Shown here in pieces: positions 56,680-64,000 of a stretch of 64,000 nucleotides of DNA (positions are counted from its first letter, which is position 1; the number at the start of each line of letters is the position of its first letter). The stretch is from the sequence record OR992645.1; one strand, given 5' to 3'. This stretch comes from Escherichia phage EI-SP-GF. Position numbers and translations under genes: made by a program. A model generated the notes under the pieces. That model was not told where the DNA came from and made no database searches. It worked only from the letters and a program-made list of their open reading frames with translations.

Positions 56680-57180
56680 GTGAAAATTAAAATCTTTGCT
56701 ATTATTTTGAGCGCATTTTTATCGCTGCCTGTTGTTGCAGCACCAAAACAAAAAGTATATCACACTTGCAAGCCGTCGGATACTAAGGAAAACATTCTAG
56801 CATGCAATATCTACAGGGAGGCTAGAGGGGATGGCACGATGGGTATGCTGGCATCCGGATTTGCCACACTAAACAGGAAATCCCACCCCAAATACCCAGA
56901 CACTATAAGAAAGATTGTCTACCAACCTAACCAGTTTTCGTGGACAAACCACGGCAAAACTTTTAAGGTGACAGAAAAAGATTCATGGGATCACGCTAAA
57001 AGTCTTGCAAAGATGCTTCTAAAGGTCTATAATAACAACCATGTTGCATACATGGCTATGGATATAACAGGTGGAGCAACACACTACCATACAACAAAAG
57101 TACGACCGAAATGGGCAAAAAAGATGCAGAGGACAGCTCAATTCGGGAGTCATATCTACTACAAGGAGCGCAATAAATGA
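56680..57180 (+). CDS. endolysin, SleB-like cell wall hydrolase (Hydrolase_2) with N-terminal signal peptide
   Basis: GTG 56680 with GGAG RBS (upstream part of track ORF contains terminator hairpin); signal-like MKIKIFAIILSAFLSLPVVAAP; CNIYREARGDG...NQFSW motifs of SleB-type hydrolases. Confidence 0.65.
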   Translation: MKIKIFAIILSAFLSLPVVAAPKQKVYHTCKPSDTKENILACNIYREARGDGTMGMLASGFATLNRKSHPKYPDTIRKIVYQPNQFSWTNHGKTFKVTEKDSWDHAKSLAKMLLKVYNNNHVAYMAMDITGGATHYHTTKVRPKWAKKMQRTAQFGSHIYYKERNK

Positions 57181-59159
57181 TTGTAAACAGCAATGAAACT
57201 AAAGCGGTGCTAACTGGGAATATGGAGGTAACCCGGGGATCAATTTCTCTGAACAAAGAGACTTTTGGGCTAATCATCAAAGGGATTTATGAAGATAAGG
57301 TACTGGCAAGCTGCCGTGAACCGATCTTCAATGCTGTGGACTCCCATGTTGAGTCTGGACGGGGTGATGTTCCGATCATCATTCACTCTCCTACAGACCT
57401 TGAACCATACTTCTTTGTGCAGGACGTTGGATTAGGCATGTCAGAAGAGATGGTCCGCAACACCTTCATGAACCTCGGAGAGTCAACCAAGCGCAACAGC
57501 AACGCTCTGGTAGGCAATAAAGGTGTTGGTTCAAAGGCCCCGTTCAGTATGGTGGACACTTTCGATGTAATCAGTGTGCACAACGGTGTGGAAAGCACAT
57601 ACCTATTGTTCTTAGACCAGGGTATCCCAAATGTCACCAAGATCCGTGAGCGGAAGACTGAAGAGCACAATGGGGTAAAAGTTCAGTTTCATGTTAAGAA
57701 AGAGCATGTTCTGAAATATCGTACCGCTATTGCATCATGCCTGCGCTATGCAAAATTTCCGTTCACTGTCACCGATCCGATGACGAGCAAGATGCTGGAG
57801 GGGGACAAAGTAGAGGCGCAGTATCGCTACGAGAAAGATGGTTGGAAAATGACTATCCTGAAAGGTTATACCAGCTCTGATGAGAGCCGTGTTGTGATGG
57901 GTCACCAACCTTACCGCTCTAAGTTCCTGGAGACATTGACCGATTACCCTGCAATCTGCGTGGAAATTCCTATTGGGGATTGCAATATTAACCCTGGGCG
58001 TGAATGGACCATAGAGGGCCATGACGACGGTGGATTCCAGGATCGCCTGGAGGCCTTTGTCAAAGAAGGTATACGTCTTCGCGGGGCAGAAGTTGTTGCA
58101 GAACTGGAGACGGCAAAAACCTCCGCAGAAGCACGTGAAATGATGAAGAATAGTGGGGTGTTCGGACACATCTTCGGTAAAAACTTTATGTGGAACCGTT
58201 GGGAAGAAACAGGACTTGGAGACTTAGGCGATTGTGAAATTTTCGCTGGCGGCTTAAATAAAGGCCGCATAGGCTATGCTCGTTATGGAAAGTCAGAGTT
58301 CTTACGGGGAGTCTATTTAGTATTTAACGACGGAGACGGCAAATATAACCGAAATAAGTGTAACTACTTAAGCGAGATCACCGGACGCAACGTTTTCTAT
58401 TGCCGTAACACGGATCTGGTGGAAGAGTTTAAAGAAGCGGCACACCACCCGTTCTTTGCAGATACGGTCAAATTGTTATCAGAGCTCCCTCGCCGACCTG
58501 TCAAGAAAGGTGAAACAAAAACTCGTTATGAGCCAGGCTATTGGGTTAAAAAACTTGAGAAGGATGGTTACTTCCGCCGTGAACGTATTACTAAGGCAGA
58601 GTTCCGGAAGATTAAACACTGCATCCCTTATGAGGGTGATATCCAACGTGGAAGTTGTTGGCTGGGGCAGATGAGTAACATCTACCAGCAAGATTATGAC
58701 CGTGTACGTGCGGCACTTCAGATTCCTGAAGGTGAAGATCTGTATCTGGTATCTGAATCTCGTCTGCTTTGGACTGATCCTGATTGCCAGTATGTTACAG
58801 AGAAGAATGTGGAGCACCTGTTGAAAGAGGATGCTTGGAAATTCTTACTGACCCGTGCAGCAAATGAGACTTCTTATGACAGCCTGTATAGACAATTAGG
58901 GAAAATTATTCCCATGCAAGATTTTGGAAATTATCGGCCACATTTCCACAAGTGGGAAGGTAACACCACGTGGAAGCACAGTGAGCTAAATCATCGTGCC
59001 AAAATCTTAATCGCCAACCGAGTTAAATGCGGGAAGGCCTATATTGCAAGATTGGAAAAGAAATACCCACTTTTGAAGCATGTAGGCTTGAAATATTGGG
59101 ACACCCCTGCTATGATTGAATACCGTGAGCTGATTGATACAAAGAATAACACCAAATAA
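57177..59159 (+). CDS. rIIA-like protein with N-terminal GHKL (histidine-kinase-like) ATPase fold
   Basis: N box EPIFNAVDS, G1 box VQDVGLGMS, G2 box GNKGVGSKAPF; 660 aa; ATGA overlap with endolysin stop. Confidence 0.5.
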   Translation: MIVNSNETKAVLTGNMEVTRGSISLNKETFGLIIKGIYEDKVLASCREPIFNAVDSHVESGRGDVPIIIHSPTDLEPYFFVQDVGLGMSEEMVRNTFMNLGESTKRNSNALVGNKGVGSKAPFSMVDTFDVISVHNGVESTYLLFLDQGIPNVTKIRERKTEEHNGVKVQFHVKKEHVLKYRTAIASCLRYAKFPFTVTDPMTSKMLEGDKVEAQYRYEKDGWKMTILKGYTSSDESRVVMGHQPYRSKFLETLTDYPAICVEIPIGDCNINPGREWTIEGHDDGGFQDRLEAFVKEGIRLRGAEVVAELETAKTSAEAREMMKNSGVFGHIFGKNFMWNRWEETGLGDLGDCEIFAGGLNKGRIGYARYGKSEFLRGVYLVFNDGDGKYNRNKCNYLSEITGRNVFYCRNTDLVEEFKEAAHHPFFADTVKLLSELPRRPVKKGETKTRYEPGYWVKKLEKDGYFRRERITKAEFRKIKHCIPYEGDIQRGSCWLGQMSNIYQQDYDRVRAALQIPEGEDLYLVSESRLLWTDPDCQYVTEKNVEHLLKEDAWKFLLTRAANETSYDSLYRQLGKIIPMQDFGNYRPHFHKWEGNTTWKHSELNHRAKILIANRVKCGKAYIARLEKKYPLLKHVGLKYWDTPAMIEYRELIDTKNNTK

Positions 59160-59169
59160 GGAGACAGTT

Positions 59170-60375
59170 ATGATTTTCATCTACGAACACTTCAAAACTC
59201 GTAAAGAAGCACGCGACCGCCGTGCAGAACTTGAGAAGAAGGGTTTCACATGTGCCATTGAGAAAGGTGACACAACCTGGACACTGGCAGTTGGTGCCCC
59301 AGAGTTGTTCGATCCTGACCGTGACAGCGTCTGCTACACCCGTGAGGATTTTGAAACCCGCGAAGAGGCCCGTTTATTTCGATACGGTCTGGAAGATAAC
59401 GGTAAGTACGCTATGATCTTAGATTTAGGCGAAGGTTCCGTTAAACGTTGGGGCGTGGTATACCCACTGTGTGTTGTTCACGGTGTGGGGTTCACTGGGG
59501 TAGCAATCAAGTCAGAAGAACCTTTAGTAGAAGTCAAAGATCCGGTGCTGGAGGTGGTGAGCAGTGTGTCTCAGCAACAGACTCGAAGCATCGAGCCTTT
59601 GGTGGTTATTTGCGGGGAACTCCTCCAGATCACCTGCAACGAAGGCATTTTTGAAATTCGCCGCAGTGAAAGTGAGGAAGTTTACCAGAAAGTCTTCGAC
59701 CATATCTCTGTTCAGGAATATGACGAGGCAATTGGTGAAATCCTTGTCTGGCTGGAACGCAAGAATGAGTTCACCACACTTGCAGACAACCTGATCATGA
59801 AAGATGGTAAGCTCTACTACTACGGTGTAGAGATGCGATCCACCATTGCAAAGAAAATTGAGAAAGATTATGCAGACGGAACACTGGATGACCGCTATGT
59901 GAAATTCCTCGTTCGCCTGCTACGCAATCCTTCTGCAAAATCTGTAAACATGCTCTACGATTTTATGCAGGCAAACGACATTCAGATTGCAGAAGATGGT
60001 CGAATCATTTGCTACAAAGGGGTTCAGTTTAACGGCGACAAGTGGGTGGATTGGCACAGTGGTAAAGTCCCACAATACCAGGGGGCTTTTGTATCCATGC
60101 CTCGTAACTTTGTAGAGGATGATCCGGAAGCTGCATGCTCTTATGGCCTGCACTGTGCCAGCAAAGAGTATGCAAAGAGCTACGGAACTGTGATGACGGT
60201 TATGGTTGACCCTGCCGATGTAGTTAGTGTACCTTACCAACACAACAGCGCCAAGTGTCGTGCATGCCGCTACGAAATCGTAGTAGCTCCAGAATCACGC
60301 AAAGATGGCGACCCAATTGAGTACGTGGTTGACCGCGACGGTAATACTATCGACATTATCTACGAGGAGGCGTAA
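59170..60375 (+). CDS. hypothetical protein (possible rIIB-like partner)
   Basis: ATG 59170 with TAAGGAGA RBS; adjacency to rIIA-like gene is the only basis for rIIB suggestion. Confidence 0.3.
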   Translation: MIFIYEHFKTRKEARDRRAELEKKGFTCAIEKGDTTWTLAVGAPELFDPDRDSVCYTREDFETREEARLFRYGLEDNGKYAMILDLGEGSVKRWGVVYPLCVVHGVGFTGVAIKSEEPLVEVKDPVLEVVSSVSQQQTRSIEPLVVICGELLQITCNEGIFEIRRSESEEVYQKVFDHISVQEYDEAIGEILVWLERKNEFTTLADNLIMKDGKLYYYGVEMRSTIAKKIEKDYADGTLDDRYVKFLVRLLRNPSAKSVNMLYDFMQANDIQIAEDGRIICYKGVQFNGDKWVDWHSGKVPQYQGAFVSMPRNFVEDDPEAACSYGLHCASKEYAKSYGTVMTVMVDPADVVSVPYQHNSAKCRACRYEIVVAPESRKDGDPIEYVVDRDGNTIDIIYEEA

Positions 60376-61745
60376 TGGAAAAAGGGCAGTACGATGTAGG
60401 CACAGATGCTGCCCTTGTTGCAATCATGAGTGGTGAGAATGTCTTCGTAAGTGGACCTGGTGGAACCGGGAAGACATATCTTATCAACATGATCCAGTCC
60501 ATGTATGGAGACTCTTGCATAACGGTTGCCCCGACAGGGGTAGCCGCTTTAAACGTTAATGGAGCAACAGCGCACCGAACTTTCGATCTTGCCGCAGGTG
60601 TGAGCATGGAGTCAGACTGGACAGCAATAAGGGCAAAAACAGCAAAGCCTCTGAAAAGCAAGGCATTTACCATCCTAATTATCGATGAAATTTCTATGAT
60701 CCGTGCTGACAAGTTCATAGAGATGGATAGAAAACTCCGCTTTCTTCGGAAAAATGACAAACCTTTCGGGGGCATTCAGGTGTTATTGTTTGGAGATTTC
60801 TACCAAGCACCTCCGGTTGTCTCTTCTATGGAGAAGGAAGCCTACTTCAACTTCTACCACACAGATCTGTGTTGCTATACAGAGTCTTGGGAGGATCTTA
60901 ATCTTCACAATATAGCTTTAGTAGACCAGTTCCGTCAGGAATCTGTTCGCTTCGCCACAATGTTGAACTGTGTTCGTGAAGGTCGTCGCATAAAAGAGGT
61001 TGTAGCAGAGCTTAACACTCGTTGCTATCATGGTGGTGTCCCAACCGATGCCTTGACCATCTGTGCCACCAATAAGCAAGCAGAAGAGGTGAACAGACGT
61101 TTCTATGATGCCATCAAGGCCCCAGAGAAGACCTACATTGGTAAAATGAAAGGTAAGTTCCCCTCCACACTACCTGTGGAGCAGGAAATGAGGCTGAAGA
61201 TAGGGATGAAGGTTATGATAACCTCAAACGATGTTGACCCGACACACAAAGTTCCGTACTATGTCAACGGGACACGCGCCACAGTGGTAAAATTCAAGAC
61301 CAAGTCTGTGGTGGTTGAGCTGGAAGACGGGACACAGGTTGAAATCGAGCCGAGATTGTGGGAGAATAACGAGTACAAACCTTCCCAGAGGTACAATATT
61401 GCCGAAAGGAAGATGGAGAAGTTCATAGAGAGGGTTGTGATCGGGTCTTATGAGCAACTTCCTTTGAAATCTGGGTACGCAGTAACATCGCATAAAAGTC
61501 AAGGACTTACGTTAGATTGTTACAACCTAGACCTCGGAAAGAACGGAGCTTTCTCTCCCGGAATGACGTATGTTGCCTTGAGTCGGGTTAAGACGATACA
61601 AGGAATAAACTTGTTGCGTCCATTAAGAGAGGTGGATATTATTGTTGACCCGAGAGTCGTAGAGTTTTATAATACAACTTTCCCTGGCTTAGACGAGAAA
61701 GTCAGGAAAGATTTTGAAACTAGAGCAGAAAAGGGGGACGTATGA
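60375..61745 (+). CDS. SF1B DNA helicase (Dda / PIF1 / RecD-like)
   Basis: Walker A VSGPGGTGKT, Walker B ILIIDEISM, C-terminal YAVTSHKSQGLTLD motif. Confidence 0.75.
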   Translation: MEKGQYDVGTDAALVAIMSGENVFVSGPGGTGKTYLINMIQSMYGDSCITVAPTGVAALNVNGATAHRTFDLAAGVSMESDWTAIRAKTAKPLKSKAFTILIIDEISMIRADKFIEMDRKLRFLRKNDKPFGGIQVLLFGDFYQAPPVVSSMEKEAYFNFYHTDLCCYTESWEDLNLHNIALVDQFRQESVRFATMLNCVREGRRIKEVVAELNTRCYHGGVPTDALTICATNKQAEEVNRRFYDAIKAPEKTYIGKMKGKFPSTLPVEQEMRLKIGMKVMITSNDVDPTHKVPYYVNGTRATVVKFKTKSVVVELEDGTQVEIEPRLWENNEYKPSQRYNIAERKMEKFIERVVIGSYEQLPLKSGYAVTSHKSQGLTLDCYNLDLGKNGAFSPGMTYVALSRVKTIQGINLLRPLREVDIIVDPRVVEFYNTTFPGLDEKVRKDFETRAEKGDV

Positions 61746-62083
61746 GTTTGTGGAGAAATATAGTTAACTACGTGTGCGGTAATCCAAATCCTGAAGAGAA
61801 GGATGTTGTGATTCACGATTTTACTAAAAGATCTCGTGAAAAAGACCTCCTGCTAACAAAGGTGATCGATAAAGACCCTGCAGTAGGAGATTGGGCAGGT
61901 TTTGCGTTTACATCTGACAAATACACCTTTAACAAAGGTGACTACCTTGTTGTGGATTTTAACGAAGACATCGAGGGTGCTGAACCTTACTATCAGACCC
62001 TTATCGTTGCAGAGTGTGTTGAGCTCTCTGCAAACATGCACAGTTTGATTCTTTTTGAGCTTGACTCTGAAGACCTTCAGTAG
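61742..62083 (+). CDS. hypothetical protein
   Basis: 113 aa, ATGA overlap with helicase gene. Confidence 0.5.
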   Translation: MSLWRNIVNYVCGNPNPEEKDVVIHDFTKRSREKDLLLTKVIDKDPAVGDWAGFAFTSDKYTFNKGDYLVVDFNEDIEGAEPYYQTLIVAECVELSANMHSLILFELDSEDLQ

Positions 62084-62143
62084 TAAGATGTGAGTCTAAA
62101 GGGGAGGCACTCCTCCCCACAAAAACTAAGGAAGCACTAAACG

Positions 62144-62446
62144 ATGAAACGTTATAAACCATACACTTTTGAAATCGATTTCGAACTTGACGATATGTTT
62201 ACTGTGGAAGCTCAGGCAGTTGTCCAGTTGCCAGACCCGGAGTGCCGTGATTCTGATGTTGACTATTACGGATTTAGACAAATTACCGATGTGCATGTTT
62301 ACCACAACGGTGAAGAGGTGAACTTCCACCAACTGCCAAACGATATGCGCCACTCAATTTACAAACGTGCAGCCCGTGAACTAGAGTCCTATCTGGATGC
62401 AGCGACGACAGCAGCTGCGTTTGCGGAAGAAGTAGGAGGTTTCTGA
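62144..62446 (+). CDS. hypothetical protein
   Basis: 100 aa, AAGGA RBS. Confidence 0.5.
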   Translation: MKRYKPYTFEIDFELDDMFTVEAQAVVQLPDPECRDSDVDYYGFRQITDVHVYHNGEEVNFHQLPNDMRHSIYKRAARELESYLDAATTAAAFAEEVGGF

Positions 62447-62853: not shown

Positions 62854-63336
62854 ATGTCAGATTTTATGTGGAAAGTGGGTTATGCCTCTCCTGAAATGTG
62901 CGAGGCTTGCTTTGTAAAAATAGGCCGCGAGGATATTGACAAAGTAATCTTTAAGTTTCGTGATGTATCTGTGATCGGCAACCGAGTGCTTAAGCACTTA
63001 AAGAATCTGAAGCTCACCAAAAAGAAGTTCTTCGGACTTTTCGAAGAGAAAGTTGATGCTTGGACCCATTGCATTCAGGAAGCTAAATCTCACTACAGTG
63101 CTATCGTTACCCCAGAACGGGTAGCCAAGATGGAAGGATTCATCAACAGCACAGAGTTTGAGTGCCTAAAGGCTGCCCTTGATAGCTATCCAAAGTGCCT
63201 CAAACACCTTGACAAGTATGTAGAAAAGGATGGTGAAATGTATCTCACTCTGGACGCATACTATGAGATGCAAGAAATTTTAAATTTAGATTTGACATTG
63301 GTATCCACCGAGTATACAATAGGTATCCGGGTTTAA
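62854..63336 (+). CDS. hypothetical protein
   Basis: 160 aa, AAGGAGAAGG RBS. Confidence 0.5.
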   Translation: MSDFMWKVGYASPEMCEACFVKIGREDIDKVIFKFRDVSVIGNRVLKHLKNLKLTKKKFFGLFEEKVDAWTHCIQEAKSHYSAIVTPERVAKMEGFINSTEFECLKAALDSYPKCLKHLDKYVEKDGEMYLTLDAYYEMQEILNLDLTLVSTEYTIGIRV

Positions 63337-63342
63337 CACTAG

Positions 63343-63369
63343 GCCCTGCCCGAAAGGGTGGGGCTTTTT
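63343..63369 (+). terminator. hairpin with GNRA (GAAA) loop plus T-tract
   Basis: ccctgccc-gaaa-gggtgggg (with G-U pairs) followed by ctttttg. Confidence 0.45.
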
Positions 63370-63387
63370 GCATTAGGAGACAGCAAA

Positions 63388-64000
63388 TTGAAATTTATCT
63401 ACAAAGACCACTACCACAAAGGTGTTGTGTGGAGTCTATTTGACGGGTCTGGTGGTGCAGTTATTGACTGGGCAAAAGCTGGGTACCTGTGCCTGTGCTT
63501 TAATGCAGAAGGTGCTGACCACGGTAGTTATGCAGAGGTGATAACCGATCATCCCAATATTCACTATGTGGATTATTGGATTGACCCATGGTTCCCTCAG
63601 GAAACTTTTTGCATGTACCCAGCTCCAGACTTTATTCTTGCATTTCCTCCGTGCACGCATTTAGCGGTGTCGGGTGCTGCACATTTTAAGAAAAAGCTGG
63701 CTAAGGACCCCCTGATCCAAATTAATGCTGTAAAGGATGCTCGGGTTGCGGAAGAGCTGGGAGAGATTTACGATTGCCCGTGGCATGTAGAGAATCCTGT
63801 TGGTGTTATGTCCACACTGTGGCGCAAACCTGATTACCGTTTTCATCCTTCTGACTATGGCGGGTATTTACCGGAGGATGATGTAAACCCCTGGTTTCCT
63901 GAATTTATAGCTCCACGTGATGCCTATCCAAAAATAACTTGCGGCTGGATAGGTAATGGATTTATAATCCCGGCCACAAAACCTGTCCCGCAAATAGTTG
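63388..64000 (+). CDS. DNA cytosine-C5 methyltransferase-like protein (5' partial, continues past window end)
   Basis: hand-translated from TTG 63388 after AGGAGA RBS: motif I SLFDGSGGAV (FxGxGG), motif IV AFPPCTHLAVSGA (PC catalytic Cys), motif VI HVENPVGV (ENV); no stop before window end. Confidence 0.5.
   Translation, partial: MKFIYKDHYHKGVVWSLFDGSGGAVIDWAKAGYLCLCFNAEGADHGSYAEVITDHPNIHYVDYWIDPWFPQETFCMYPAPDFILAFPPCTHLAVSGAAHFKKKLAKDPLIQINAVKDARVAEELGEIYDCPWHVENPVGVMSTLWRKPDYRFHPSDYGGYLPEDDVNPWFPEFIAPRDAYPKITCGWIGNGFIIPATKPVPQIV

Follow-up and report, generated by a model that had tools for sequence, protein, structure and literature searches.

Phage Dcm-like enzymes are known triggers of the retron Ec86/Eco1, and the only one of them found to have experimental evidence of 5mC formation is the Dcm of the Drexlerviridae siphovirus K42, which is KarlJaspers strain Hzau42 (bioRxiv 10.1101/2023.08.16.553469). 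All K42 mutants that escaped retron Ec86 carried a disrupted 711-bp 'Dcm-like' gene, and expression of K42 dcm was toxic only when the retron was present (bioRxiv 10.1101/2023.08.16.553469). It was shown by LC-MS that the 5mC content of the msDNA is high in the presence of wild-type Dcm, but not with the C82A/E128A/K175A/K176A mutant (bioRxiv 10.1101/2023.08.16.553469). The specificity of the K42 enzyme for CCWGG was assumed from that of E. coli Dcm and is supported by mutation of the motif in the msDNA, although it was not directly mapped; msDNA mutations that keep the hairpin still abolish the response, and a duplex CCTGG stem is indicated by the data (bioRxiv 10.1101/2023.08.16.553469). The family thus holds at least one member with evidence of DNA C5-methylation in vivo, and the one effect demonstrated for any member, the triggering of retron Ec86, is costly to the phage. 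No Vequintavirinae are among the Ec86-sensitive phages listed in that study (bioRxiv 10.1101/2023.08.16.553469).

In the Vequintavirinae, a Dcm-like gene is annotated in more than 100 deposited Vequintavirus genomes and, with one member of its family characterised, can be regarded as already known. The genome paper of rV5 does not mention the gene, and a literature search for 5mC in Vequintavirus DNA retrieved no report. In the BASEL study, the Vequintavirinae were described as 'exceptionally susceptible' to the six tested restriction systems, which comprised types I, II and III, and no simple relation was seen between phage methyltransferase genes and resistance to restriction (PMC8594841).

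The stretch of DNA analysed here, hereafter the window, comprises 64,000 nucleotides of Escherichia phage EI-SP-GF (OR992645.1) and belongs to an rV5-like Vequintavirus, the last 7 kb being 94-95% identical to many rV5-like myoviruses of E. coli. At its end lies an open reading frame on the plus strand (63388..64000), which begins with a TTG codon at 63388 and stays open up to base 64000, giving 204 codons and one additional base. The TTG is preceded at a distance of 7 nt by the ribosome-binding site AGGAG (63376..63380, plus strand), which can be read directly from the sequence and is kept in phage Bas59. In annotated orthologs, the gene starts at the same TTG and has 765 nt, encoding 254 amino acids, so that around 50 codons of the gene should lie beyond the end of the window; if the gene is colinear with its relatives, it would end near position 64152. 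The protein is 99% identical to gp226 of rV5 (YP_002003728, named 'DNA methyltransferase' in RefSeq) and, over 204 residues, 99% identical to Bas59_0072 of the BASEL collection (QXV77766, 'Dcm-like C5 cytosine methyltransferase'). The Bas59 gene differs at 23 nucleotides, 22 of which are third codon positions, leaving a single amino acid change (D7E). Judged from its sequence, the gene is clearly expressed as a protein and under purifying selection.

We conclude, with a probability of roughly 0.8, that the open reading frame is the first four-fifths of an ortholog of rV5 gp226 and encodes a small AdoMet-dependent DNA cytosine-C5 methyltransferase of the phage-wide Dcm-like family PHROG 757. 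A first-pass annotation, made from the letters of the window, had proposed a C5-methyltransferase-like gene that is cut by the window edge; this proposal is borne out by homology, by the predicted fold and by the published work on the K42 relative. A profile search, which had been suggested there as a check, matched residues 2-202 of the protein to positions 5-177 of the 247-position profile PHROG 757 'DNA methyltransferase' with an E-value of 9e-68. In a tblastn search, the protein matched 1491 phage records, 115 of them with at least 95% identity and 28 with 99%, and 2312 relatives were found in a large protein database, which are 219-260 amino acids long among the matches listed. The match to PHROG 757, the relatives found by tblastn and the bias towards third codon positions together argue that the motifs described below did not arise by chance.

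Standard domain collections recognise the family poorly. The window protein has no match in Pfam or NCBIfam, including PF00145, and 17 of 35 aligned relatives match PF00145 weakly and each time only in the region of motifs I to IV; two of the 35 (P0074 and P0079) exceed the gathering cut-off of 22 bits. When the window fragment was searched against the sequences of the PDB, no significant match was obtained, and the family profile retrieved only M.HaeIII from the PDB sequences (E 0.94). Comparison of profiles with hhalign was more informative for motifs I to IV, which were aligned with DNMT3A at an E-value of 3.6e-4 and with a small profile built from HhaI, Dcm and DNMT3A at 5e-4. Against E. 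coli Dcm alone, the family profile matched motif IV only (E 0.18), and in global mode hhalign returned an end-to-end overlap without meaning. The canonical profile was shallow, as a database search with M.HhaI had yielded only relatives of 71-100% identity, and motifs VIII to X could therefore not be mapped with confidence. An AlphaFold2 model of the protein reached a pLDDT of 89.2 and a pTM of 0.89. When it was compared with known structures, Foldseek ranked DNMT3A and DNMT3B domains first (E 1.5e-6). In a listing of structural matches, M.HaeIII, DNMT1 and DNMT2 stood lower down, with generic Rossmann-fold dehydrogenases only below them. According to the model, the fold is that of a Rossmann-type class I methyltransferase and is closest to the DNA C5-methyltransferases.

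The first-pass annotation had also reported motifs I, IV and VI in the order and with the spacing of C5-methyltransferases, and all three could be located. Motif I, the FxGxG loop that binds AdoMet, reads FDGSGG (residues 18-23, 63439..63456, plus strand) and is aligned with SLFSGAGG of M.HaeIII, LFAGLGG of M.HhaI and SLFDGIATG of DNMT3A; its F, G and S are nearly invariant among 120 relatives. At position 41, 115 of these have D or E; hhalign pairs this position with E664 of DNMT3A, and it may thus represent the acidic residue of motif II that participates in AdoMet binding. Motif IV reads FPPCTH (residues 86-91, 63643..63660, plus strand) and contains the predicted catalytic cysteine, Cys89; P87, P88 and C89 are present in all 120 relatives, and the motif is aligned with GFPCQ of HhaI and GSPCND of DNMT3A as well as with the PC of HaeIII and Dcm. 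The family consensus is PPCTD, with an aspartate in 107 of the 120 sequences and a histidine, as found here, in nine. Motif VI, the ENV motif with Glu135, reads ENPV (residues 135-138, 63790..63801, plus strand); ENP is invariant (120/120), is followed by valine in 116 relatives and is aligned with ENVV of DNMT3A. The landmark residues F18, C89 and E135 of the window protein correspond to F18, C81 and E119 in M.HhaI, which illustrates the HhaI-like spacing. Further downstream, the segment PRDAYPKITCGWIGNGF (63913..63963, plus strand), which includes the strand formed by residues 184-189 of the model, resembles motif VIII. Its core, PK(K/I)TCxWxGN, is paired with HRARYFWGN of DNMT3A by MAFFT alone, and no significant profile match covers the region; an assignment to motif VIII is therefore tentative. 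K182 is found in 119 of the 120 relatives and W187 in all of them.

Between motifs II and III, the family possesses a near-invariant signature of its own, CFN-x-D-x-x-DHG-x-Y (residues 37-48, approximately 63496-63531), in which none of the 120 relatives deviates at N39, H45 or G46. No counterpart of this signature was recognised in HhaI, Dcm or DNMT3A.

The C-terminal part of the enzyme lies partly outside the window and was assessed in full-length family members, which have a median length of 231 amino acids (n=120). In full-length orthologs, about 35 residues separate the motif-VIII-like strand PKKTCLWTGNGF (GNGF) from the invariant sequence IRSLTPRG. The corresponding distance is about 100 residues in M.HhaI, and a target-recognition domain would be expected to span some 50 to 100 residues or more; in the phage proteins, this domain is thus reduced. 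The TPR motif (RSLTPRG) is followed by only 10-36 residues, with a median of 12, which leaves no room for the segment of about 45 residues that carries motif X in HhaI and DNMT3A, and a motif X of the form GN(A/S)V could not be recognised after the TPR motif in full-length orthologs. The first-pass annotation had considered that a full-length alignment lacking motifs VIII to X and a target-recognition domain would speak against a methyltransferase. Part of this was indeed found, namely a recognition segment shortened to about 35 residues and the lack of a recognisable motif X; however, the assignment stands, because the K42 enzyme makes 5mC in vivo with the same architecture.

Three registers were weighed for IRSLTPRG, namely motif IX, motif X of DNMT3A (GRSWSVP) and the recognition loop of DNMT3A. 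MAFFT placed the sequence against this loop (VRTITTRS), whereas hhalign paired IRSLTPRGFA, which is invariant in the orthologs and lies outside the window, with motif IX of HhaI (RKLHPRECAR). This pairing is part of a second, colinear hhalign piece with an E-value of only 0.13, which extends from GGKSxKTK to IRSLTPRGFA and corresponds to residues 256-281 of HhaI, where the recognition domain ends and motif IX lies. The motif IX register has the best support and is tentatively favoured because it is colinear in hhalign and because the terminal helix of the model comes next. The residual recognition segment occurs in two subtypes: 76 of 120 members, with the phage studied here among them, have 'GYSxQ', and 43 have 'NPGW', as do K42 and KarlJaspers.

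On the basis of these motifs, a catalytic cycle can be proposed by analogy with known C5-methyltransferases. Cys89 of the PPC loop would attack a flipped-out cytosine at C6 and Glu135 of ENPV would protonate N3; AdoMet, bound by FDGSGG and the acidic residue 41, would donate its methyl group to C5. The enzyme would thereby mark phage DNA, together with any other DNA present in the cell, wherever its short target sequence occurs. For the window protein itself, activity, the assumed target CCWGG and any benefit under restriction are extrapolations. The number of CCWGG sites in the window (98 versus 119 +/- 11 expected) indicates no notable depletion and is uninformative about specificity.

The first-pass annotation had further suggested that a methyltransferase encoded near a helicase protects the phage DNA from host restriction. 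Protection against enzymes that are blocked by the same methylation is plausible in principle; however, since the Vequintavirinae are so sensitive to restriction, any protection would be at most site-specific. Methylation by a Dcm-like enzyme would, in turn, expose phage DNA to methylation-dependent restriction. Knowledge of a Dcm-like gene in a therapeutic or typing phage therefore helps to predict host range.

Several alternative explanations were considered for the same observations. The first-pass annotation had read PPCTH as an intermediate between the PCQ of methyltransferases and the PCH of thymidylate synthase-like enzymes, so that the protein might act on nucleotides as a dCMP- or dCTP-C5-modifying enzyme of the thymidylate-synthase/dCMP-hydroxymethylase kind and bring about a global replacement of cytosine. 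The local likeness of PPCTH to the active-site string PPCH of thymidylate synthase is all that speaks for this reading, and it seems to be incidental, as the histidine is a minority variant (nine of 120, as opposed to 107 with aspartate). Structurally, the protein is matched best by DNA C5-methyltransferases and then by short-chain dehydrogenases, with no protein of the thymidylate-synthase fold among the matches listed. A global base replacement is countered by the sensitivity of the Vequintavirinae to restriction systems of types I, II and III (PMC8594841), and the related K42 enzyme modifies DNA that has already been made, the msDNA. A thymidylate-synthase-like identity was consequently rejected on the grounds of the methyltransferase fold and the non-conserved histidine, and a dCMP-modifying activity is hardly credible. 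It is also highly improbable that the enzyme resembles the carboxymethyltransferase CmoX and uses carboxy-SAM, provided by the host enzyme CmoA, to form 5-carboxymethylcytosine. The host does make Cx-SAM and the C-terminal motif of the family contains an invariant arginine, but the better sequence match places this residue, Arg228, in motif IX and not clearly at the position of N304 in HhaI. In addition, the CmoX signature SPPC is replaced by FPPC, the closest fold match, DNMT3A, is an ordinary AdoMet enzyme, and 5mC was the product detected by LC-MS for the K42 relative.

The missing target-recognition domain would suit an enzyme that methylates RNA, as the DNMT2-type tRNA m5C methyltransferases do, or single-stranded or replicating DNA instead of duplex sites. 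However, DNA methyltransferases outscore DNMT2 in the structural matches, and the K42 data indicate a duplex CCTGG stem in the msDNA as the substrate, which makes such a preference very unlikely. Somewhat less remote, but still quite unlikely, is a weak or catalytically inactive protein in rV5-type phages that serves another role, for instance in DNA binding or as a decoy like DNMT3L. The lack of motif X, the exchange of the residue equivalent to K176 for isoleucine and the fact that the Vequintavirinae are not protected against the tested restriction systems are consistent with a loss of activity; on the other hand, FxGxG, D/E41, PPC and ENPV are all kept under strong purifying selection, and relatives with the same shortened architecture, such as K42, are active. 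The preferred reading thus remains that of an AdoMet-dependent DNA cytosine-C5 methyltransferase. A more far-reaching version of it, according to which the family represents the smallest working form of a DNA C5-methyltransferase, takes its target choice from elsewhere for want of a proper recognition domain and of motif X, provides the restriction-sensitive rV5-like phages with a benefit other than classical antirestriction and perhaps recognises a target different from CCWGG, is rather unlikely. A target other than the assumed CCWGG is conceivable, since the recognition segment is not of the subtype seen in the studied enzyme. If this version were true, target choice might depend on dimerisation as in DNMT3, on a partner protein or on the structure of the DNA at replication forks.

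The genomic surroundings of the gene are those of rV5. Upstream of the methyltransferase gene, the window contains rIIA (57177-59159), rIIB (59134-60375) and a gene for a Dda-like helicase (60375-61745), as in rV5, as well as four small open reading frames of unknown function. In relatives, the methyltransferase gene reaches into the start of the primase/helicase gene that lies directly downstream, and a DNA polymerase gene comes next. The conserved synteny, together with 99% identity, establishes orthology with the annotated Vequintavirus genes.

Other observations were made in the same region. The open reading frames 61742-62083 and 62144-62446 are separated by a spacer of only 60 nt (62084-62143), as in Bas59, whereas an adenine methyltransferase gene of 1.3 kb (rV5 gp230) occupies this position in rV5 and many relatives. 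As the site of gp230 is empty in both the window and Bas59, the gene is subject to a presence/absence polymorphism among Vequintaviruses. An N6-adenine methyltransferase of Bas51 has been reported as a retron trigger (PMC12548924). The adjoining open reading frame (62144-62446, plus strand) encodes a protein of 100 amino acids that belongs to PHROG 4240, is of unknown function and weakly matches the C-terminal part of the profile PHROG 1573 'DNA methyltransferase' (E 1e-5); it borders on the site at which other phages have the adenine methyltransferase. Furthermore, approximately 39 records named 'Campylobacter phage' with the host C. jejuni, among them MG065654, MG065666, MG065661, MG065658 and MG065682, are 94-99% identical to this Vequintavirus region and would seem to be coliphage genomes that were mislabelled or arose from contamination.

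The methyltransferase gene is preceded by a promoter-like site of the sigma-70 type (63292..63320, plus strand), which consists of TTGACA, a 17-nt spacer and TACAAT, agrees with the consensus at 11 of 12 positions in the scan and is contained in the 3' end of the preceding open reading frame. The site is the annotated promoter P231 of the rV5 RefSeq record and has the identical sequence in Bas59. With a sigma-70-like promoter of its own and a place upstream of the primase/helicase and polymerase genes, the methyltransferase gene is probably expressed together with the replication genes. In the 5' leader of the gene, a terminator scan detected a G+C-rich hairpin with a run of T (63341..63371, plus strand), comprising 11 pairs, seven of them G-C, and a loop of 4 nt, for which an RNA folding energy of -22.8 kcal/mol was calculated (z = -2.2). 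The hairpin resembles an intrinsic terminator that would serve the block of genes upstream. The arrangement, in which a near-consensus sigma-70 promoter-like site precedes a strong terminator-like hairpin by around 20 nt, is peculiar in that transcripts from this promoter would reach the hairpin almost immediately. The entire leader of 107 nt is 100% identical to that of Bas59, while the neighbouring coding sequence differs by 3.8%. The hairpin might terminate transcription of the upstream genes and also serve as a 5' stabiliser or as an attenuator.

Among the known systems, the classical C5-methyltransferases differ from the phage enzyme in several respects. M.HhaI, M.HaeIII and E. coli Dcm, which belong to PF00145, are 327-472 amino acids long, whereas the phage proteins have 219-260; the classical enzymes possess a target-recognition domain of about 100 residues and motif X, in contrast to the approximately 35 residues of the phage family, which lacks GN(A/S)V, and the window protein stays below the Pfam threshold of PF00145. 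The catalytic domains of DNMT3A and DNMT3B share only 12-16% identity with the phage protein, retain motifs IX and X and around 45 C-terminal residues that are absent from the phage family, and act as an oligomer with regulatory domains. The likeness to DNMT3 is as likely to reflect convergence in size as a special relationship. In rV5 and Bas59, the gene has the same TTG start, promoter, hairpin, ribosome-binding site and neighbouring genes as in the window, and rV5 gp226 and Bas59_0072 show no substantial difference to the part of the gene inside the window, the last 50 codons being outside. The characterised relative in K42 is represented by Bas06_0055 of KarlJaspers (711 bp), which shows 54% identity to the window protein across 187 amino acids (E 4e-72) and has C82, E128, K175 and K176 exactly at the positions mutated in K42 Dcm. 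The window protein shares the minimal architecture of K42 Dcm, and C82, E128 and K175 of the latter correspond to C89, E135 and K182. In contrast, K176 of K42, a lysine in 105 of 120 relatives, is replaced by isoleucine (I183), and the recognition segment is of the 'GYSxQ' instead of the 'NPGW' subtype found in K42 and KarlJaspers. Owing to the isoleucine in place of the second lysine and to the other recognition subtype, activity and target of the rV5-type enzyme are extrapolated from K42 Dcm, with which it has the catalytic cysteine, the glutamate of motif VI and the first lysine in common.
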